A DNA stretch of 64,000 bases, taken from assembly GCA_963803805.1 (NCBI GenBank), contig CAWDOD010000001.1, positions 1 through 64,000 of the forward strand. Direction: 5' to 3'. The translations under genes were made by a program, and so were the position numbers. Below the pieces are notes generated by a model. That model saw only the letters and a list, made by a program, of their open reading frames with translations, was not told where the DNA came from and searched no databases. How positions within the stretch are numbered: the stretch's first letter is position 1; each line of letters begins with the position of its first letter. Source of the stretch: an uncultured cyanobacterium. Its GTDB lineage: Bacteria > Cyanobacteriota > Cyanobacteriia > Cyanobacteriales > CAWCAG01. Below are positions 2,251 through 59,312 of the stretch, piece by piece.

Positions 2251-2989
2251 ACTTACTTCCTCAAAAAAAAGTCAACAGTTCAAACAACATCATGAATATC
2301 AAAGGATCTGGTCATCGATTATCGCCAAAACTTCAGACAAAGGAGAACAAAACATAGCCATAGACAGGCGAACAAACAAACGTTACAACCGTATCATCGA
2401 CAAAGAATTTCAAAGCATACTAACCCCTAGACCCAACGACCATGGAGAAAACGACCTCAACTCTGCCACAGACTTAAGAAGTGCTTACCTATGCTTAGCT
2501 GTAGCCCGTGACGTTCAAGGTAGCATGACAGCCAAAACAATAGCCGCAGCTAAATTAGCAGGGCATCTAATCGAAGGAGAAAATGGTCAAGCCTTAACAG
2601 ACGCAGACCTAAGCAAACTAACCTACTCAATAGGCTACGGAGCTTACTATGTACCAGATGGAGTAGAAGTTCCCTTACTTGAGCTTCCCTTTTTCATCAG
2701 AAGCAAATATTGAACAACTACAACCAGAAGAAGATAAAGAAGAAAAAACTGAAATAGAACAGCTAAGACAGCAGTTGGAAAGTTACCAGAAAAGTAGTCA
2801 AGAAAGAATCAACCAGTTAGAAGAAAAAGTTAACCAGTTAGAAACATCACTTAAGCAGCAGAAACTTCAAGCTGAATCTCAACCGAAAACAGTCCAAATA
2901 AAGAGCAAAACTCAAACCAGGGACTGGGAGAGTATCAGCAGAAAAACCAACTTTTTGGTTTAGGGAAACATGAACACCCGGTCAGAGGA
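2251..2989 (+). pseudogene. Mirror copy of the internal protelomerase fragment
   Basis: Reverse complement of about 24222-24955. Confidence 0.75.
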
Positions 2990-3879
2990 AAGCTTCAACA
3001 AATCCAACTCCTCAGCCTGTAAAACCTTAGCCTCCATCGCCTGCAAATCTGCTGCCACAGGCTCCACATCCGCAAAATCAAAATACTCTGTTAGTTTGCC
3101 TAAAGGATAATTGTCATCCTTGTAACGGTGTTTAAAGTAAAGTTCTACATTACCCCTATGAGCCAAGTGCCTAATACTTCTATGTGAAGCTTGCCTAAAT
3201 GCTTTCTGACATCTCTAGTCACCTCAGCTACTCGTTCCTCAATAGTGCGTTTAGTAACACCAATTTTGTAAATGGTTTTTGCGGAGGTAGACACCCTTAA
3301 AAAGTAGAGTTGGAGTTCTAAAATACGCCGCAATTGGGCGCAATACATTTGCCAGTCGGCTTGTTTCACAGCTAAAGAAGCTGAATTAGTGAGCTTAGCT
3401 ATGTTAAAGGCAGAGTGAAATTGCTGCAACTTCTCCAGGAGTAAAGGTTCCTGAACTTGGTTAAACTCTTGGAGAGACAAGGCATTGACAGGAATCTTAC
3501 CCAAGTTAGTGAAGCCATAGCCAGGGGGTTGTAGTTGATTATTCCAAGCAAAAAGCTTCTTCAAAACCAGACTAAAAGGGACATGGACAGGAGAATAGTT
3601 CGTATGACCATATTCTCGCCATAGTTGTTGATGTTGTAGCAATTCCTGGGGAGAAAGATGGAGGTGAAAATTGTCGTAAAGGGGTAAAGAAGGGACTTTG
3701 CGGCGGGCCACTAGTTTACAAGTAGCATGGCTATGTGCAAAGTGATGAACTTTAACCTTACCTTTCTTAGCAGTTAAAGTATCGCCACAGTAAAGGCAAA
3801 TCAAATTAGTTTTACCTTTGGGTACATCTTCGACAGGAATGAGGTTGCCATCTTCGGCCAGACCATATTTGAGCCACAT
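2960..3879 (-). CDS. Mirror copy of CoiA-like Zn finger / GIY-YIG-like protein (frameshifted near the C-terminus)
   Basis: N-terminus is intact here (MWLKYGL...CLYCG...HHFAH); the main-arm copy has an intact C-terminus. Confidence 0.7.
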
Positions 3880-4035
3880 AAAACAGGAACTAATAGAACA
3901 AAAGTACTTATTCTAACAGCTACTGCTAAGCTGAGTAACTGTGGTGATGCTTCCTGATTTTTGATTTGATGCTAAAAAGTGCAAGTTAGTATGGAAGTTA
4001 TTGCGTATAAAGTGACTAAAAGAAATCAGACTAGT

Positions 4036-4682
4036 GTTTCAACTTCTTTACTTCCTGATGGAAGTCGTGACTCAAATAGAGAAGAAATAAGACTAGAAAG
4101 ATGGAAGAGTTTCAACTTCTTTACTTCCTAATGGAAGTCGTGACTGCGGAAATTAAAATAGCCCAAGTGGGCTATCCATGCGTTTCAACTTCTTTACTTC
4201 CTAATGGAAGTCGTGACACCCAGGCGATGAGGAAAGTTCCTCCCGCTGACCCCTACCCGTTTCAACTTCTTTACTTCCTAATGGAAGTCGTGACTTGTAG
4301 TGACAAGAACGCCCGCAGAAAAAATATTTGGGTTTCAACTTCTTTACTTCCTAATGGAAGTCGTGACATACAGAAGACACTTTCTTCTGGGCAGAATGAT
4401 AAAAAATATGTTTCAACTTCTTTACTTCCTAACGGAAGTCACGACGAGGCTGATATTCATGACAAGTGTCAGAAGAGATTCATTCGTTTCAACTTCTTTA
4501 CTTCCTAACGGAAGTCACGACAACATAGTCTAATGACTTTAAAGTGTACGAAAAACTTAGAGAAGTTTCAACTTCTTTACTTCCTAACGGAAGTCACGAC
4601 CTTTCTAGCGTACTTATCGATTATGAGGAACAATCACAATCAGTGCGTTTCAACTTCTTTACTTCCTAACGGAAGTCGTGAC
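4036..4682 (-). CRISPR. Mirror copy of array 22542-23171
   Basis: 9 repeats GTTTCAACTTCTTTACTTCCTAAYGGAAGTCRYGAC (one with a CCTGATGG loop); same spacers with errors. Confidence 0.93.
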
Positions 4683-5582
4683 CCCCTCATTTTAAACCCT
4701 TACCCTGCATAGTGTCTAGAAGCGGTTTTGGGCCATCCCCTAAAAACATCTATGTTGACGAATAAAACAATAAGAAAAAAGCACCTCAAATCCTTACAGA
4801 GTAATGGATGGGCCATCTCAACGAAAGAATGGGGGTTTCAGAGATTTTCTGAACATGCCCGCAACTAGACTTAAATGACAGTTGAACCATGATCTTTCGT
4901 AATAGGAAGACCACCCCAAACCTCTACCCTATCTAAGTTATGCCCTGAGATAGGATAAAATCTCAAACTATCTTCCTTTATATCTATCCTATCTTTAAGG
5001 CGAAAACGTAATTCAGCGTATTTTTCATCTTGAGCATTAATTTCTGTCTTATTAATCAACCTCAAAACTAAAGAATCTACCAGACTCCTTCACTTATTAC
5101 CAATGAGCAATAGGCAAGGAGGTTGAAGCCTTTTTGTTTAACTTTTATCAGGCTCATCCGCTAAAGCGTAGCAAGGCGATCGCAAAGAAAGGATTTCGTA
5201 AAATCGTATTCAGGCAGATGCTTCAGCTACCAAGGAAACAACTTCCTAGTTTTCTTAGCTGAATCACTAACACTAGTAACTATTTTGCTCATTGCGCTGC
5301 TGTTGCGTACCAGAAATAGGCTTTCTCTTCAGGTCATGGGTAGCAACGATTTCACCTGTCATCAAAGCTTCCTGGGACCTCTCCGGGAAAGTAGAGCGAT
5401 CACCTAGCTTTGCCCTTGTCTCTTGGTAAAGACTTATCGTATTGCAACCTAAAACTTCTTGAGTTAAAGCTTCTGTAGATTTCTTGTAACAGCTAGCATC
5501 CCCGCCTTTGTCTTTAATAGTTTTAGTAAAGTTTTTGCGAACTGTAGCTCCATCAACTCTAAACTGCTCTAGAGAGGGCTGT

Positions 5583-6903
5583 GACCTGATTGACTGACAA
5601 AAAATATTAGGTAGAGAGGAAATACCAAAGAGGAGAAAGAGATTGACGGAGTTGACAAACAGGAGGGGAGTCTCCGATTGTGAAAGAAAGAAACCACTCA
5701 AATCTTTCGCAATACGATGAAAAAAAACTCCCCTCTTTTACAATGCCTTGAATTCATGGCTAGGTCAAGGCAGCAATTGGAAACATCAAACACATCTGGT
5801 AACTTGCATCTGGATAATATTTGCCCTAATTCATACAGGTAGCGTCAATCTAACTAAATGGTCTGTTTATATACCTTGCCGAGGGCTATATGCTCAAAGC
5901 AAGCAAAGGCGTATTCAAAGGTGGTTGAATAATCCTCGAATCAATATACACAGACTCTATCAACATCTAATTAAAGCAGCACTAGACACTTGGCAAGAGC
6001 CGAGCATCTATTTAGGATTGGATACATCGATGTTTTGGGAAGAATATTGCTTGGTACGCTTATGTGTAATCCATAGAAGGAGGGCATTACCTGTAGTGTG
6101 GCGAGTGATGAGACACAAAAGTGCGAGTGTGTGTTTCAGAGATTATCAACAAATGCTTCAACAAGCACAGAGGAGATTACCAACAGGAGTAAAGGTAATA
6201 CTCTTGGCAGATAGAGGATTTATTCATAGTGAGTTGATGGAAATGTTAACCAAGCAACTGGGATGGCACTATCGCATTCGGCTCAAAAGTAATAGCTGGA
6301 TATTTCGAGGAGGTAAGGGCTGGTGTCTAATTAAGGATTTCCACTTCAATCGGGGAGAGGCAATTTGTTTACATCATGTCATGCTCCATAACAATCTCCT
6401 TATCTCAATTAGTCCATGTAGTTGTGTGTCGTACAACGTAAACGGTGAATTTTGGGCTATTGTCAGTGATGAAAAAACTACTCTACAGACTTTTTGCTGA
6501 ATATGGGTTACGCTTTGACATTGAAGAAAACTTTCTTGATGACCAGTCCCAAGCCTGGAATATACAACGCTCTTCGATAAGAAATGTCTGTGCCTTGTCT
6601 AGGTTGTTTTTTATTAGCTGTTCGGCTACCCTCAGCCCCCAAGGGGTCGAAGTTGTCGAGTTGCGAAGGCGGAAGATGGGTTTATGCTCATTGGTTTCGT
6701 GGCAAAGCTATCTTCGTATTGGTTGGGATTGGGTCAAGGGAGCCTTAATTCAAGGATGGAAACTTATTGATAGGGTTTGCTTTAGGAGACAGCCAAGACC
6801 CCTCACCTGCTATGGCTTCACGAAAGCAGCACCAAAAACGACTCTATCAATTTGAGTTCCAGGCCCAGTATATGCAACAACATAAGTTTTGTCAGTCAAC
6901 CAG
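5583..6903 (+). mobile_element. IS4-superfamily DDE element (mirror copy, more complete than the main-arm copy)
   Basis: TIR CCTG(A/G)TTGACTGACAAAA; motifs LADRGF and RFDIEENFLDDQS. Confidence 0.8.
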
Positions 6904-52081: not shown

Positions 52082-55000
52082 CTATCGTGCCATTGCAGCT
52101 TCTTTTTGAGAAGACTGTCTTTTGTTTTTGCTAGCTGAATGTTGAGACATTTGCTGCTGCTTAGATTTTTCCAGAGCCTCTTTAACTTTTGGCCCAACTC
52201 TTTCGGTGAAGTAATCTGCTCTCTTATCGCTCAAGTTGGAGCCTAAATCTTTCCATTCTCCCCCATCATATTTAGCTTTCATTACTATCTCTTCAGTCTG
52301 ACTATCAGTTAAAGTTATCGATAAATCGTCATAATCGTACTCACAGGTGTGTTTACTACCACGTTTACTAAGCTTTCCATTCGCATCAATTTCACCCGCA
52401 ACTTTCAAATAAGATGAGACTACAGGAGCGACTTTGCTTACTTTTTCTTGCTGTTCGTTGCTATTGTTATCAGCAAGTATTGGTTTTTCAACCTTTTTAC
52501 TATCACTTTCGCTAGCTAATATAGGTTTTTCAACTTTCTCTTGAGAGAGTTTTTCCTGTTCTCTTTTTTGTAAAGCCTTTTTAACTTTTGGCCCAACTCT
52601 TTTGGTAAAGTAGTCTGTTCTCTTATCACTCAAATTAGAACCTAAATCTTGCCATTTTTCCCCATCATATTTAGCTTTCATTACTGTTTCTTTAGTCTTA
52701 TTGTCAACTAAAGCGACAGTTCGAGATTCTTCATTTAAACTACTAGTATGGCGCTTACCTTCTACCTTGCTTTTACCTTTAAGCTTTAAATAATCAGCAA
52801 CCACAGGAGCAACTTGCTCTACTTTGTTTTGTTGCTCTGAATTATTAGTAAGTGTTGGTTTCTCAACCTTATCATCAGCTAGTATCGGTTTCTCTGTACC
52901 GTTGTCATAGGTTTCAACTTCATGATTGTCACTGGCCAGTGTAGATTCTTCAACTTCTTCCTCAACCACCTCTGAACCAACAATCTCATTTGAATCAACT
53001 ACCTCAACAACTTCATAACCTTCATTACTTACTTCTTCTTCGTTATGAGTTGCTGGTTGAGGCTGACTCCCATCGCCAATTTCATTTAGGTTAACTACTT
53101 CATGCAGTTTTTCTTCAACCTGATTTTCAGACTCTTCTGAGTTATTGGTAAGTATAGGCTCCTCAACTTCTTCATTTTGAGTCACTGGTTGAGAGTCAGT
53201 CTCAACCTCATCATCAGCCAATATCGGCTTCTCTGTACCATTTTCGTAAGTTTCAACTTCATCATCAGCAAGTACAGGCTCCTCAACTTCTTCATTGTCG
53301 TCAGCTAGCACAGGTTTCTCTGTACCATTCTCGTAAACCTTAACTTTAGGATCATCATTCATATTCATTTTGCTACCTAAAATCACATCACTACTATCAG
53401 GGCCAACACCAACTCTCCCTGACGAAGCTCTACTAATTTGCTGTTCAAGCTCCTCCTCAGCCTCATCTGCTTTTTGCTGCAAACTCTCTGTATCAGGCAA
53501 TTCAAGCCCTACAATCTCACGAGCTAAATAGTTATCTTCTTCTTTTGCGTACAAACCATTATTCTCATTAAGATAATCGACAACTTTACCTAAGTTCTCT
53601 TCAGTAACATAAGCTTCCATGCGATTACCAACTGAAACAAACTCATCATCAGCCGCCGCCAGCAAGTCTTGATCCAAGAAATATTGACCTCCTTTAGACT
53701 TAGATTTAGGAGTAGATAATAAGTAAGTTCTATCAAGATCAGTATAGGAAGGGTGGTGTTCAATAGTTAAGTTTTTGTCTTTAGTACTAACCTCTTTTTT
53801 GTATTCCTTAGTGAGCTTTTTCACAGACTCTACATCAGGTATGCGTATGGGCATTTTCTCCAGATGCTCCTCAATGGAGAATCCTTTCTTCATCAAGATA
53901 CCCTGCTCAATTTCCCCCTCACTATTGGTAAAAATAGAAACCTTACCCTCCTTTAAGTATTTCTCAGAAGCCCGAAGTAAGTTACCTTTAATCATGCCTC
54001 TCTGTTCACGGCCGGAGGTTTGACGCTCATCAAACAACCTATAAACTGGTGTTTGATCAAAATCATCTACTTTCTGAGGCTTCATTTTGTAGTCGCGATA
54101 ACTATTCATTTCTCCCATCTTGGAGTGAGGAATTTTTAATTCCCTAGCCTGATCTGCTACTGCCACTGTTGTTTTCCAACTACTAGGAGCTACAGGATTT
54201 GCATTTTCACTTCCTTTATAGCTATGCCCTTGAATAACTCCATACATAACCATATTGTTGGGAGTTTGTACCTTTACTGTTTCTCCCACAGGGTAATTTT
54301 GAATTACCTCTTTCAGTTTTTCAGCTTGCCCATCTATTTTGTTATTAAAATTTTCTTTCTGTCCATCAGTTTTAAACAGTGACTCTTTTTTCTTTTTGTA
54401 ATCCAATACAGATTGAACTACTTCCTCTATCTGCCCTTGGGAATGCTTTTGACTAAGAGCTTTTACTTCATCTAATGCAGAGACATGATCCTCAACTTCA
54501 TCGACTTCCGCTAACCCTAGTTTCTCCCTAACCCCATTAACAACATCCAGAGTCTTAGGAGGTTGGCGATTGTTTTTAATCGAGACAATCTGAAAATCAA
54601 CTCCTTGAGTAAAGGGAGAATCACTTCCAGGATCAGAAGGTTGTAACTCTGCTGATGCCAATGTTACAGCATCAAGGTCTTCCGCTTCTGCATCTAGCTC
54701 ATAAGCACCAATAGATTTTAGCTCTCTAACTCTATCTTGATAGTCTGTTTCCAACCTCCCAATCAACTCTTCCTGTTCTTCTAGATCCAACATTGGCATA
54801 CGTCCAGTGACGCGACGCATATTCCCCTCATACGGTTTTATCGGATGTGATAATTTCTGACTTAACTCCGGATCTTCTTCTACTATATCTGCTGCTACCT
54901 CATCACCAATTTCATTAAACATATCAATGGCATCGCCAAAATTGACTTGAGATTCAGCATTAGCTGTAGTGTTGGCGGCTAACGAGGACATTTTATTCAT

Positions 55001-58000
55001 CAGAATAGCTGTCTGTCGCTTTTCATGGGGAATGTCCCCAGAAACAATAGTGATATGAGGTGCTTTTGTTTGCCCAGTACGATGCACTCGCCCAAAAAAC
55101 TGCTTAGCTACATTTACGTCTCCCTCCGGTTGTACCAACAAAAATCTCCTACGGCGTTGGTCTTGAGCCTTTTCTGAAGCATGGAGAGATATTCCAGTAG
55201 ACGCAACCTGATTACCGATTGCTCCATCAATCTCCCCGCTTTGAAACTGGTCAACGGTTTTACCTAAAGCAGCTTTACCTGTGTCTCTAGAACTACGTTT
55301 TTGATATACAGGCAAATAGTTCCCATCTTCTTGCTTCTGATAATCTATATAGGATGAGCGTCCCGTCATTTCACCGATACTATAACCAGCTTCTTCCATT
55401 TTGCATTTGTACCAGTCGATAGGAGAAGCAGGTACAGACGTAAAATCCGTTTCATCTATTAGTCGTTCAATCTCATCCCAAGCATCTAATGCTTCTGTAC
55501 TTAACTCCTCGTCACTTAGCCTCCGCCTTGTAGTTTCTCCATAAGCATCTCTAGTAATAACTTCCCGTGACCTCTCAGCATAATGCCTAAGCATATCTCC
55601 CAAGTTAGCGTCAATAGGATCACCAGGCTTAATGTCATTCTCTTCTGCGTAGCGTCCAAAAAATGATTCAGAAGTACGTGAAATCGCAACAAAAGGTTTC
55701 TCCCCTTTGTCAAGAGCCTCCAGGGATTTATCAATCGTACCGTCAATTTTTTTAGCTAAAGTTGATGCGTTAAGATAATTGTGCATCAAAGAAGCAAAGT
55801 TCTGGCTATCTGCCCCAGCTTTCCCTGTAGCGTTATCTCCCAAAACCTCTTTAGCTTCTGCTTTTAAAAGATTATCAACACTTTTAAGAGTACTTTGTTT
55901 ACAATCATCAAAGTCACGAATAGCAGCCATAACATTAGCTTCTGCATTCGTTAACTCCCGGCTAGCTTCAACAACCTCTGCATCAAAGTCAACCCCTTCA
56001 AAACTTCTTTCCCTACGAACATACTGACCAGCTTCTGTAAGTTCATTGGCTAGAACCTGCTGCATAGGCAAACCACCATCGGTAGTTATTCTAATCAGCG
56101 AATTGATATCCTCTACCGCAGCGCCCATACCAGTACGGGAATAGAAATCCATCATATTCGGATCTTTTGCATAGGTAGCACTGGCAGAAAAAGTACGCTT
56201 ACTTTTCTTCTTCAACTCCCTAGCAAATTCTGCTGCATTAAGAGGATCTTTTGACCAAGGATTTCTATCCGGAGCAGCCCCAGCCGAGTGAGATTCATCT
56301 AAGGCTAAAAATGAGGAAGGAGCAAAGGTACGCAAAAGATCCCTACGACGTGGCTCTTCTCCCCTAACAGTTTGCATCTGAGAGTAGGTGGTAAAAATAG
56401 CATTGTAATCCCCTTTTAAATCTCCACTAGCTATCATTTCCTCCATCTCTTTATCATGGCTATCTTTGCCGTACTTAATCCTCTCCCCATTGTGGAGACG
56501 TAAGTTGAGGTTAGAGTCAGTGCAAAAAGGTTTTACATCCTCAACTCCAATCTCTTCAAACCCTTCAACAACATCTCTGTAAAGGTTATTATCTTTAGTA
56601 ACAACGATGGGTGTACTACCTTGTTGTCGAGCATATTGAGTGATTGCTGCTAACTGTCTAGATTTGCCAAAACCTGTATCATCTCCTAAGACAACTTCTC
56701 CATCTTTATCGTAGTTATCTATGCCTAAAGCTACTCCTTCAATCTGTTCTGCACTCAAAGCTTCATAGAGTCTATCTTTATCCCACTCTCCAGAACCAGC
56801 CACAGAGCTAGCACCTGCGACATAAGAATTCATTTTCCCTACTACCCAATCGTCTAGATCCTCATAGCCTTCCTGTTGGGCATTCTTCTCTAATTTTAGT
56901 AAACGCTTACGCAAAGCTTTGTGCATATTAGAAGGAACCAGGGCATTAAATGACTTCCCTTTTGAAATTGGCTCCCAAGGTGTTTGTAAGTCTTGTGTAT
57001 TTTCCATGATTCCTCCTAAGTTTAAGCTTGGTTGGTCACGCTGGTTCTCACTAGTTCCAGCCATTCCCGTAGTTGAATGTCTTTTATTGCCGTCTGAGCC
57101 TGCTGAATCTCCTCCTTTCTCTCCACTATCTTCAGGGGATAATCCACCAGCAGATGAAGGTTCAGGCTCTCCCTGAGCAACTCGTTCTCCTCCGTTAAGT
57201 CTCTGGCTATCACGTAAGCTCCCAAAGTTGGAGTATTGATCAGATTCTGCAAATTCTCCTCGGTTTTCCCCTCTATAGGTGCTACCATCTGTTCCGGTAG
57301 ACTCTGCCGGATCATATCCACTGCCCACTTCATATTGTTGTGTTGGAGAATCAGATACTCTACCCTCTTCAATAGCAAGTTCAGGTAAGAATCCTGAGTC
57401 TTTATTTTCTGAAGGACTTTGGGAACTTCTATTGCTGTCCACTGAGCGATTACCGCCAGGGATGCGGACTCTATTTGTTCCTCTGTTGGTATCCAATAGT
57501 TGGGATGATCTAGATACATATTTAGTTAATACCTCCTTTTCAATTTCTGCAAAACTACTATGAACGGGGGGAACATCAACCGCCGGATAGGGGAGTGCTG
57601 ATTTTCCTTTCCCATCTATGGCAATAACATCTATGGGATAATTAGCCCCTTGACGGTTATATAAGGAACCATCAAGGGAAAAATGTTCAGTAACGTTGTA
57701 ATCATCGTAAAGACTTTTGAAAAAAGCCCTGTTTTGGCGAGAGTTGTAAGACCTACCCCTAGCTTCAGGATCTAAACCCTTCACTCCTCCAATAATCAAA
57801 ACTGCTCTCCCATCATCTTTCAATGAAGAGAGTGCGTTCAAAGAGATTGCATGGTCAATTTCTTTAGTATGATACTTGCCAGTATCCCAAGTTTTATTAC
57901 TTCCATCTTTCTCCTTAACCCTACCAAAGGGAGGGTTAGCAACAACCACATCTACTTTTTGGTCAGGGCGGTAAGTGGTTGCATCAAAGGTAGTAGTTTT

Positions 58001-58468
58001 ATAGCCTTGCCTTTGCAATGCCTTGGCTCTATCAAAGTCTAACTCGTTAGCCTGCACATTTTGAGGATCAGCTTCTAGCAACAAAGCCCCATTCCCTGCT
58101 GAAGGTTCAAAAACAGAATCCTCTTGACCAATTCCAGCTAAACGATTAGCTAAATAAGCAATGGGTAAAGGAGTTGAGTAAGCCTGGTTAGCAACACTAC
58201 TACTAGTGCGAGTACCCAATCGAGGCTGACGCTGATACAAATCTACAAGACTATGGTAAGCAGAAATTTCATCTTCACTTTCAATTATCTCCTTAGCTAC
58301 CTCTATCAAAGATTCTTCAATAGTTTCTTCTAACTCCTTAGCTTGTGGAGTACCAAAGTTTATCTTTTCCCCTAACTTATCTCCAGCCCAAGACCTAGCT
58401 TGGGTAATTGTTCTAAAACTATTACCCTGACGGAAATATTCAGCTAGTTCTTGAGTTAATTCAGCCAT
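52082..58468 (-). CDS. Polyvalent N6-adenine methyltransferase plus strawberry-notch-type SF2 helicase
   Basis: EPSAGNG and NPPFG (MTase); GDDTGFGKSRQ, LDESH, ASATYAK, STGISLHA, QFFGRVHRTGQ (helicase); acidic repeats and a duplicated C-terminal domain. Confidence 0.92.
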   Translation of the reverse strand: MAELTQELAEYFRQGNSFRTITQARSWAGDKLGEKINFGTPQAKELEETIEESLIEVAKEIIESEDEISAYHSLVDLYQRQPRLGTRTSSSVANQAYSTPLPIAYLANRLAGIGQEDSVFEPSAGNGALLLEADPQNVQANELDFDRAKALQRQGYKTTTFDATTYRPDQKVDVVVANPPFGRVKEKDGSNKTWDTGKYHTKEIDHAISLNALSSLKDDGRAVLIIGGVKGLDPEARGRSYNSRQNRAFFKSLYDDYNVTEHFSLDGSLYNRQGANYPIDVIAIDGKGKSALPYPAVDVPPVHSSFAEIEKEVLTKYVSRSSQLLDTNRGTNRVRIPGGNRSVDSNRSSQSPSENKDSGFLPELAIEEGRVSDSPTQQYEVGSGYDPAESTGTDGSTYRGENRGEFAESDQYSNFGSLRDSQRLNGGERVAQGEPEPSSAGGLSPEDSGEKGGDSAGSDGNKRHSTTGMAGTSENQRDQPSLNLGGIMENTQDLQTPWEPISKGKSFNALVPSNMHKALRKRLLKLEKNAQQEGYEDLDDWVVGKMNSYVAGASSVAGSGEWDKDRLYEALSAEQIEGVALGIDNYDKDGEVVLGDDTGFGKSRQLAAITQYARQQGSTPIVVTKDNNLYRDVVEGFEEIGVEDVKPFCTDSNLNLRLHNGERIKYGKDSHDKEMEEMIASGDLKGDYNAIFTTYSQMQTVRGEEPRRRDLLRTFAPSSFLALDESHSAGAAPDRNPWSKDPLNAAEFARELKKKSKRTFSASATYAKDPNMMDFYSRTGMGAAVEDINSLIRITTDGGLPMQQVLANELTEAGQYVRRERSFEGVDFDAEVVEASRELTNAEANVMAAIRDFDDCKQSTLKSVDNLLKAEAKEVLGDNATGKAGADSQNFASLMHNYLNASTLAKKIDGTIDKSLEALDKGEKPFVAISRTSESFFGRYAEENDIKPGDPIDANLGDMLRHYAERSREVITRDAYGETTRRRLSDEELSTEALDAWDEIERLIDETDFTSVPASPIDWYKCKMEEAGYSIGEMTGRSSYIDYQKQEDGNYLPVYQKRSSRDTGKAALGKTVDQFQSGEIDGAIGNQVASTGISLHASEKAQDQRRRRFLLVQPEGDVNVAKQFFGRVHRTGQTKAPHITIVSGDIPHEKRQTAILMNKMSSLAANTTANAESQVNFGDAIDMFNEIGDEVAADIVEEDPELSQKLSHPIKPYEGNMRRVTGRMPMLDLEEQEELIGRLETDYQDRVRELKSIGAYELDAEAEDLDAVTLASAELQPSDPGSDSPFTQGVDFQIVSIKNNRQPPKTLDVVNGVREKLGLAEVDEVEDHVSALDEVKALSQKHSQGQIEEVVQSVLDYKKKKESLFKTDGQKENFNNKIDGQAEKLKEVIQNYPVGETVKVQTPNNMVMYGVIQGHSYKGSENANPVAPSSWKTTVAVADQARELKIPHSKMGEMNSYRDYKMKPQKVDDFDQTPVYRLFDERQTSGREQRGMIKGNLLRASEKYLKEGKVSIFTNSEGEIEQGILMKKGFSIEEHLEKMPIRIPDVESVKKLTKEYKKEVSTKDKNLTIEHHPSYTDLDRTYLLSTPKSKSKGGQYFLDQDLLAAADDEFVSVGNRMEAYVTEENLGKVVDYLNENNGLYAKEEDNYLAREIVGLELPDTESLQQKADEAEEELEQQISRASSGRVGVGPDSSDVILGSKMNMNDDPKVKVYENGTEKPVLADDNEEVEEPVLADDEVETYENGTEKPILADDEVETDSQPVTQNEEVEEPILTNNSEESENQVEEKLHEVVNLNEIGDGSQPQPATHNEEEVSNEGYEVVEVVDSNEIVGSEVVEEEVEESTLASDNHEVETYDNGTEKPILADDKVEKPTLTNNSEQQNKVEQVAPVVADYLKLKGKSKVEGKRHTSSLNEESRTVALVDNKTKETVMKAKYDGEKWQDLGSNLSDKRTDYFTKRVGPKVKKALQKREQEKLSQEKVEKPILASESDSKKVEKPILADNNSNEQQEKVSKVAPVVSSYLKVAGEIDANGKLSKRGSKHTCEYDYDDLSITLTDSQTEEIVMKAKYDGGEWKDLGSNLSDKRADYFTERVGPKVKEALEKSKQQQMSQHSASKNKRQSSQKEAAMAR
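57022..57519 (-). CDS. Nested (overprinted) gene, paralog of 58477..58941
   Basis: AGGAGG upstream of the ATG; collinear similarity to the upstream 154-aa protein (see findings). Confidence 0.8.
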   Translation of the reverse strand: MYLDHPNYWIPTEEQIESASLAVIAQWTAIEVPKVLQKIKTQDSYLNLLLKRVEYLILQHNNMKWAVDMIRQSLPEQMVAPIEGKTEENLQNLINTPTLGAYVIARDLTEENELLRESLNLHLLVDYPLKIVERKEEIQQAQTAIKDIQLREWLELVRTSVTNQA

Positions 58469-58476
58469 TTATCTAA

Positions 58477-58941
58477 TCAAATTTCTGCCAAAGTTAAATT
58501 TACTAACCAATCTTTGAAAGCTGTCTGCCCGATAATTTTTTCAGCTAATTCATCGTCGCCAGCTTGTAAGGGGAAAACGAATTCTACATATTCATTTAAT
58601 AGCTCTATTAAAGCTAAATTAGTTAAAGTTAATCCTTCTGCGATCGCAGTGGATAAACTAACAGGAGATTTCCCATTAGATTGAAAGTTAATAATAGACT
58701 CTAAAGGAATTTCTTCTAACATTTTATCAGGCAAAACATTTTTGATTAACCCAATTAAACAATCTTTATCTTTTTCTTTTTCAATCATACCTTTAACTCT
58801 CACACCCAAAAAGTTAAGATACTCTTCAGGATTTTCAACTGAAAGTTGAGGCTTAGGTAGCTCAATAGTACTGATAATTTGAATAGAGTCTGTGCTTTTG
58901 GGAAGCCAAAAGTTAGAATTACCATAATATGACATACTCAT
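58477..58941 (-). CDS. Hypothetical protein
   Basis: 154-aa ORF coupled to its neighbours; paralog of the nested ORF. Confidence 0.75.
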   Translation of the reverse strand: MSMSYYGNSNFWLPKSTDSIQIISTIELPKPQLSVENPEEYLNFLGVRVKGMIEKEKDKDCLIGLIKNVLPDKMLEEIPLESIINFQSNGKSPVSLSTAIAEGLTLTNLALIELLNEYVEFVFPLQAGDDELAEKIIGQTAFKDWLVNLTLAEI

Positions 58942-59312
58942 AACTCCATACCTTCATCTGGTTGCTGAAGTTCTTGTTGCTCCTGCTTAAACTGCCTAGC
59001 TTTTTGGGTTATTCTTTCAGAGAAATTTCTTGTCCTTTCAGAGGAAAGATTAGAACCTTGATCTTGCCAAGTCTCACCATCAAACTTAGCTCTAGCAAAA
59101 GTTTCTCCTGTCTTGCTATCACTGATGTCTAAGCTTTGCTCTTCATCATTGTAAACAAGAGTATTATTACTTCCAATAATTTCGCTAGTACCAGCCAAAG
59201 ACAAAACTGTAGCAGCCATAGAAGCGACTTGTTCCACTTGTTTTTGCTGGTCAAATTCATGCAAACTTTGACCTAGTGGTTTTTTACTTTTACTAACCGT
59301 TAGTCCTGGCAT
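58938..59312 (-). CDS. Stand-alone copy of the recurring ~80-aa domain
   Basis: VEQVASMAA...ARAKFDGETWQDQGSNLSSER. Confidence 0.75.
   Translation of the reverse strand: MPGLTVSKSKKPLGQSLHEFDQQKQVEQVASMAATVLSLAGTSEIIGSNNTLVYNDEEQSLDISDSKTGETFARAKFDGETWQDQGSNLSSERTRNFSERITQKARQFKQEQQELQQPDEGMEL

Follow-up and report, generated by a model that had tools for sequence, protein, structure and literature searches.

How can a conserved small gene lie wholly inside the gene of a very large enzyme, on the same strand, with both readings kept open? This question is raised by a stretch of 64,000 nt from an uncultured cyanobacterium (assembly GCA_963803805.1, contig CAWDOD010000001.1, positions 1 to 64,000; hereafter the window), in which the list of open reading frames (ORFs) and its translation place a gene for a 2128-aa polyvalent protein, a methylase-helicase of the DarB-like type, at 52082..58468 on the reverse strand, the strand of all window features given below. 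A sequence-only reading had noticed that the ORF 57022..57519 lies in another frame of this gene, and had suggested a real dual-coding region, a conserved small gene across which the polyvalent protein is read. The ORF does lie in the +1 frame of the large gene, and both its homologs and the selection acting separately on each frame support that suggestion. Judging from this sequence evidence, we regard it as very likely that 57022..57519 is read in two same-strand frames and represents a genuine, selected small gene inside the methylase-helicase gene.

The nested gene, identified from the ORF list, BLASTP, its homologs and the selection analysis, begins with an ATG situated 949 nt downstream of the host ATG, hence the +1 frame, ends with a TAA at 57024..57022 and encodes a protein of 165 aa (P0001); the same DNA also encodes host residues about 317–482. 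An AGGAGG resembling a Shine-Dalgarno (SD) sequence is read at 57537..57532, 12 nt 5′ of the nested ATG, as had been reported, and in the host frame it forms part of the codons for ..EKEV... Residue counts agree with the earlier description of the host frame over the overlap as rich in S, G and R, the spacer of about 165 residues holding 28 S, 24 G, 15 E and 14 R, with D also abundant. The nested ORF is the longest open alternative-frame stretch of the host gene, at 167 codons against 79 for the next one, and the +1 frame of the host gene contains 133 stops over 2128 codons. A free-standing paralog of 154 aa (P0002; 58477..58941), recognised by BLASTP and by profile, ends 8 nt before the host start. 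The end-to-end alignment first proposed by eye for the two proteins is significant by BLASTP (E-value 6e-14, 30% identity over 148 residues), and the family profile matches P0002 with an hhalign probability of 96% (E 1.9e-9) and a profile-search E of 6e-12. A six-frame search of the whole 5.3-Mb genome found P0001 and P0002 as the only copies of the family.

Is the second frame kept elsewhere? Our final table comprises 24 homologous loci, from cyanobacteria of several orders, one Desulfovibrio piger contig and one Tannerellaceae homolog, and a member of the family is nested in the +1 frame in 23 of them, as expected for a conserved alternate frame. In all 13 fused loci of the same order, a +1 ORF of 155–185 codons occupies host residues about 320–500, and the products share a W-x-P near the N-terminus, YL.L...RVEW, FP, and WL near the C-terminus; positions W, P, Y, R and P are invariant in the family alignment. 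A profile search detected the family in 9 of 401 genomes of the phylum, every match except P0002 being nested in the +1 frame of a big ORF, and three more distant loci also carry a nested +1 ORF, as do the named plasmids of Leptolyngbya sp. NIES-3755 and Chroococcidiopsis sp. CCNUC1. Scanning species-representative genomes with an alignment of the big protein gave 66 loci, among which the family profile matched Almyronema, Sphaerothrix, Symploca, Tolypothrix, a broken Hydrococcus locus and the Desulfovibrio piger contig. In the twenty-fourth locus, that of the Tannerellaceae homolog, the modules are fused and a +1 ORF of 144 codons is open over the spacer, yet this ORF showed no significant profile-profile similarity to the cyanobacterial family or to the flavobacterial small gene described below. 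All 23 nested genes start with ATG, a simple pattern picks out a purine-rich SD-like motif ahead of 16 of them, and a host-frame ATG follows the nested stop within 32 nt in 15. In each of the 23, the small gene falls precisely at the junction of the methylase module with the helicase module. The suggestion of a dual-coding region would have been refuted by an insignificant alignment together with a second frame closed in homologs, and neither was observed. Among database proteins the nearest homolog (P0004) is 71% identical to P0001 and has the same length of 165 residues. DNA encoding the closest relatives (P0004 and P0005) or P0020 was not found among the genome, metagenome and viral contigs searched with a three-protein alignment (metagenome contigs for P0020), nor did tblastn of P0001 match any plasmid record. 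Likewise, P0001 and the flavobacterial small protein had no tblastn match among 50,697 phage records, and the three-protein alignment and the flavobacterial protein had none among viral contigs.

Which of the two readings is held by selection, and in what manner? Substitutions were compared by codon phase in 11 pairs of related loci. Within the overlap, nested codon position 3 (position 1 of the host codon) takes most of the differences and host position 3 the fewest (nested positions 1/2/3 in two example pairs: 42/30/70 and 55/36/78), and identity is higher in the nested frame than in the host frame, e.g. 63% against 43%. On either side, in the methylase and helicase parts, it is host position 3 that varies most, as in ordinary genes, and in 40-codon windows the substitution phase flips at the borders of the nested ORF. 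In five pairs the observed number of substitutions was also placed at random, with new stops barred in both frames, in 400 runs each. Nested amino-acid changes as few as those observed occurred in 0 of 400 simulations in four pairs and in 8 of 400 in the fifth, whereas host-frame changes matched random placement, 123 to 400 of the 400 simulations lying at or below the observed count. Finally, we counted T at risky sites, that is, as the final base of nested codons followed by a codon starting AA, AG or GA, where T would make a host-frame stop. No T was found at any of the 32–54 such sites in each of the 23 loci, while T ends about 9–26% of the other codons; at the Tannerellaceae locus T was likewise absent from all 52 risky sites. 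P0002 offers a natural control, with 19 stops in the frame equivalent to the host and a G+C content at third codon positions (GC3) of 0.24, against no host-frame stop and a GC3 of 0.55 in the nested copy. Both frames are therefore maintained by selection, the nested one on its residues, which are under purifying selection, and the host one by stop avoidance only. Taken together, the phase, simulation and stop-avoidance results make the small gene the constrained reading, and the big protein reads across it an unconstrained, stop-free spacer. The absence of T at risky sites demands selection for an open host frame, and hence ribosomes starting at the methylase ATG must continue into the helicase.

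The enzyme around the nested gene follows the order N6-adenine methylase, spacer, Strawberry-notch-type SNF2-like helicase and long C-terminal region. An alignment of 10 homologs delimits the methylase module at host residues 1–316 (57520..58468), with NPPFG at residues 178–182 invariant across all 10; host-frame conservation stops near residue 315 and resumes at a ..Y.P.S.G.. motif, from which, together with the Pfam domains, the helicase and C-terminal part is placed at residues 488–2128 (52082..57007). Pfam detects N6_Mtase at residues 159–226 (E 9e-7), AAA_34 at 570–839 (E 5e-20) and Helicase_C_4 at 1031–1189 (E 3e-23), the last two, in one polypeptide with the methylase, marking the Strawberry-notch type of SNF2-like ATPase. 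Fused homologs of 2000–2600 aa with 36–39% identity were found among 201 genomes of the same order, and the named homologs are located on plasmids. In the window, the same-strand neighbours include ParA, ParB and a type IV coupling protein of the TraG/TraD type, a context that points to a conjugative plasmid. A methylase paired with an SNF2-type ATPase is what has been published as the "DNA methylase-helicase dyad" of DarB-like polyvalent proteins, which are thought to protect transferred DNA (PMC5512222).

As for the small protein itself, an AlphaFold2 model of P0001 built on a 13-sequence alignment is mostly helical with a small sheet and is confident (predicted local distance difference test 80.8, predicted template modelling score 0.80). 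The nested proteins are acidic, with isoelectric points (pI) of 4.1–4.9 and net charges of −1 to −23. A profile search of 1.84 billion representative proteins returned 86 relatives, all of 76–213 residues, and those with a source name are all labelled "hypothetical protein"; no Pfam family scored above threshold in the 48 relatives scanned. A contig is recorded for 19 database representatives, 17 of which come from contigs shorter than 6 kb in which the host ORF is cut, and in a tree the database members interleave with the known nested genes. For these reasons many database members probably represent nested genes that gene calling picked up only on truncation of the host ORF. The nested-family profile gave no significant match to the host-frame big proteins. 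The closest look-alikes according to a language model are immunity clusters of the Imm5/Imm6 type (Imm5 score 0.91), a lead only, which Pfam does not confirm, as Imm5 and Imm6 (PF14423, PF14434) had no match at E <= 1 in any of 65 family members. ArdA and Ocr had no Pfam match either, and a DNA-mimic fold was not among the matches listed by Foldseek or VIA, an outcome that is inconclusive for such a fold; the net charge, at −1 to −23, is modest beside the very high negative charge typical of these mimics. The protein of the nested gene belongs to an undescribed family. The nested proteins are also rich in tryptophan, with 4–10 W per about 165 residues against only 2 in P0002; this may be tied to the glycine-rich host spacer, since a nested TGG reads xxT GGx in the host frame.

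How could such an arrangement have come about? In six loci of Flavobacteriia/Bacteroidia the methylase ORF, an acidic gene of 140 aa and the helicase ORF are separate. In one of them (L070) the methylase ends in an ATGA stop/start overlap and the helicase ATG overlaps the end of the small gene. The flavobacterial small gene and the nested family have in common position, size, acidity and an N-terminal motif. Perhaps the ancestor was a coupled three-gene operon of methylase, small gene and helicase, as in Flavobacteriia, in which translation in the methylase frame later ran on across the small gene and into the helicase; we hold such an origin by read-through to be somewhat better than an even bet. 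The small gene would then be the older reading, because it is the nested protein that is structured and conserved, the host frame giving a sequence of low complexity and without constraint. In the window, a second AGGAGG (57017..57012) followed by a host-frame ATG (57007..57005) lies 14 nt past the nested stop (57005..57017, by reading of the sequence). It is possible that translation of a free helicase (MENTQDLQ...) starts internally here, or that this site is left over from a helicase gene that formerly stood alone; as the old helicase start, it may still yield free helicase by termination-reinitiation. P0002 and P0006 branch inside the diversity of nested genes on a long branch, and the tree fits P0002 as a free-standing duplicate derived from the nested gene, although the tree does not fix its placement firmly.

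What might the small protein do? We propose that ribosomes would initiate internally on the shared mRNA, at the SD and ATG of the small gene, and that its product would then act on the enzyme, either inhibiting it as an off-switch in the donor cell or escorting or chaperoning its transfer. Such a dedicated partner of the enzyme, whether inhibitor or transfer escort, appears to be the most likely role, although our confidence in it falls a little short of even; it is favoured by the fixed position between the modules, which in terms of position extends to the split form, and by obligate co-transcription. Its main competitor, to which we give a distinctly smaller though real chance, is an early or establishment factor that works independently and does not bind the enzyme, for example an acidic anti-restriction or anti-defence protein. 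The acidity of the family would suit this, as would the free-standing copy upstream, the published link of the host-gene family to the protection of transferred DNA (PMC5512222) and, as a lead only, the Imm5-cluster score. However, neither ArdA, Ocr nor any other Pfam family matches, the fold searches brought up no DNA-mimic fold (inconclusive as they are on this point), and a freely acting factor would sit poorly with an inter-module position kept in 23 of 23 nested loci; the presence of a small gene between the modules also where these are separate genes argues for a tie to the enzyme. If the partner reading is extended to DarB-like enzymes in general, they would possess a third component, a small acidic off-switch or escort, either free, as in Flavobacteriia, or hidden in the +1 frame, as in the cyanobacterial plasmids, Desulfovibrio and Tannerellaceae, a generalisation that we put forward as tentative and doubtful. 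If true, it would mean that polyvalent proteins can form by reading through a gene in another frame without losing that gene.

Other explanations question the peptide, the fusion or the gene itself. The locus might really consist of three genes, the open frame of 2128 codons giving no fused protein that is made or needed and serving, for instance, against polarity. The SD-plus-ATG at both ends of the small gene indeed resembles the layout of an ordinary operon, residues in the host frame evolve as though free of constraint, and in a relative on a 24-kb contig a call of 97 aa (P0005) hints that the host frame may be interrupted there. Yet the methylase frame runs without a stop in all 23 loci, T avoiding every risky site, and fused proteobacterial homologs exist without any small gene, which leaves this reading improbable. 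No better placed is the idea that the nested ORF is mainly a translational device for restarting at the helicase ATG, its peptide being unimportant: the SD and host-frame ATG just past the nested stop in the window, and the close ATG in 15 of 23 loci, would fit, but the peptide is under strong purifying selection with its invariant W, P, Y, R and P, its fold is predicted with confidence and the close ATG is missing in 8 of 23. Translational coupling may be an added role; it cannot be the sole one. A selfish insert tolerated as a loop, e.g. a gene like that of a homing endonuclease or an intein with an out-of-frame nuclease, is hardly credible, given that no nuclease, Hint or other Pfam domain was found for it in either frame and that it occupies one fixed site in all loci, diverging together with the host gene rather than being patchy among close relatives. 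That the frame is open by chance or by an assembly artefact, for which only the general rarity of long same-strand embedded genes in bacteria speaks, is refuted by the BLASTP match to P0002, the 86 profile matches, the conservation at 23 loci and the frame-specific selection.

Several observations weigh against parts of what we propose, that is, a translated small gene, partner of the enzyme and heir of a three-gene operon. The loci are related, so that their counts are not independent events; the tree resolves roughly ten deep lineages. The simple SD pattern is absent in 7 of 23 loci and the nearby host-frame ATG in 8. The enzyme can exist without the small gene, as in four fused proteobacterial plasmid homologs, including a Vogesella record where aligned pieces spanning 570 query residues occupy only 399 codons, which makes its spacer about 170 residues shorter. 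The three-gene ancestor is drawn from position only: the nested family and the flavobacterial small gene align collinearly over 126 columns, but without significance (hhalign probability 1.7%, E 0.029), so that profile comparison does not establish their homology. On function, comparing the family with Pfam, NCBIfam, PHROGs and PADLOC gave nothing, the best hit among PDB sequences had an E of 0.12, Foldseek found no match in the PDB at E <= 0.001, and a wide VIA-align search reached at best Z 3.6, below the meaningful level for helical models. The translation of both frames rests on sequence evidence. One homologous locus (L013) is held in RNA-derived contigs of 20 runs from 8 studies, and raw reads from 4 runs of 2 studies cover it at low depth, with a local excess over the nested ORF in all 4, partly on both strands; these reads speak of transcription only and have no defined 5′ end. 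A promoter and terminator scan gave no promoter-like site near the nested ORF, which is not evidence either way.

Small genes embedded in larger ones are not without precedent. The Bacillus subtilis gene comS, for a peptide of 46 residues, lies out of frame within srfAB and is not known outside close relatives. The likeness lies in a small regulatory gene placed out of frame in a very large multidomain gene; here, by contrast, the product is a 165-residue protein with a predicted fold, conserved across orders and in two phyla. Lambda Rz/Rz1 is closer in form, with a complete +1-frame gene in a longer same-strand gene, one mRNA and cooperating products, as also described in a preprint (bioRxiv 10.64898/2025.12.20.695498), but those are unrelated lysis proteins with both frames functional, whereas in this plasmid methylase-helicase the host frame is only a spacer. 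The same preprint reports the "genes-in-genes" of Synechocystis slr0489, slr1079 and slr1082, intragenic out-of-frame translons that are translated and whose products interact; they resemble our case as long out-of-frame nested genes in cyanobacteria, and differ in that neither a methylase nor a helicase is involved there (bioRxiv 10.64898/2025.12.20.695498). The published DarB-like dyad, as far as the consulted portion of Iyer et al. 2017 goes, shares with our host gene the joining of an N6-adenine methylase to an SNF2/Strawberry-notch-type ATPase, on what in our case is probably a conjugative element, and contains no small third component or gene in another frame (PMC5512222). A search of full-text literature, supplementary files aside, turned up neither this family nor any account of a methylase-helicase or polyvalent protein whose gene contains a nested one.

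According to abstracts in the literature, most claimed embedded genes of bacteria are young antisense ORFs, and long same-strand examples with clear selection on two frames are few. The gene described here is about 500 nt long, extends over several cyanobacterial orders and a second phylum and carries a clean selection signature. It also illustrates a route to multidomain fusion in which the fused enzyme obtains its spacer by reading, out of frame, a gene that keeps its function. A widespread methylase-helicase system, presumed to protect DNA during transfer, would accordingly have a component that has gone unrecognised. Standard annotation overlooks the nested gene, and a whole protein family is missed as a result. 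All five named plasmid records matched by tblastn list the big gene alone at the site of the nested ORF, and the nested gene is absent from the feature table of NC_010480.1 (Picosynechococcus sp. PCC 7002 pAQ6), where the ORF occupies 100519..101013, the gene tables of the plasmid collection being incomplete.

Some individual loci depart from the common pattern or add to it. On a contig of Hydrococcus rivularis NIES-593 (L067, about 2465–4700) the homologous locus is broken, with a methylase frame that ends after 308 codons, a remaining nested-family fragment of 75 codons (profile E 1.4e-5) and a helicase split over several frames; it looks like a decaying copy. In one genome (G077, contigs C2/C3) the whole big gene occurs twice in diverged form (L015 and L024), and both copies contain a nested ORF; identity between the two is 63% for the nested proteins and 43% for the host spacers. 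A protein of 2067 aa from a single 64-kb metagenome contig (P0105, in the P0017 cluster) begins as a member of the nested family and continues in the helicase frame near the end of the ORF, a frame change fusing small protein and helicase that could be either a natural variant or an assembly error; by eye, its C-terminus contains a Toprim-like stretch. At L013, near the 5′ end of the big gene, read ends at positions 6172 and 6278 carry consistent foreign sequence in all 4 runs, and there are two fixed base differences at 6220 and 6262. The strains behind these reads seem to differ from the reference, through a rearrangement or a second diverged copy.

Directly upstream of P0002 in the window, an ORF of 124 aa (58938..59312) resembles host residues 1860–1976 (43% identity, E 4e-19). 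Each of the two genes that precede the host gene is thus a paralog of a different part of the big-gene locus. The domain shared by the 124-aa product and host residues 1860–1976 is repeated twice in the C-terminal region of the host protein, and it is found as well in open frames of 236–515 aa in other genomes (G027, G036 and G161).

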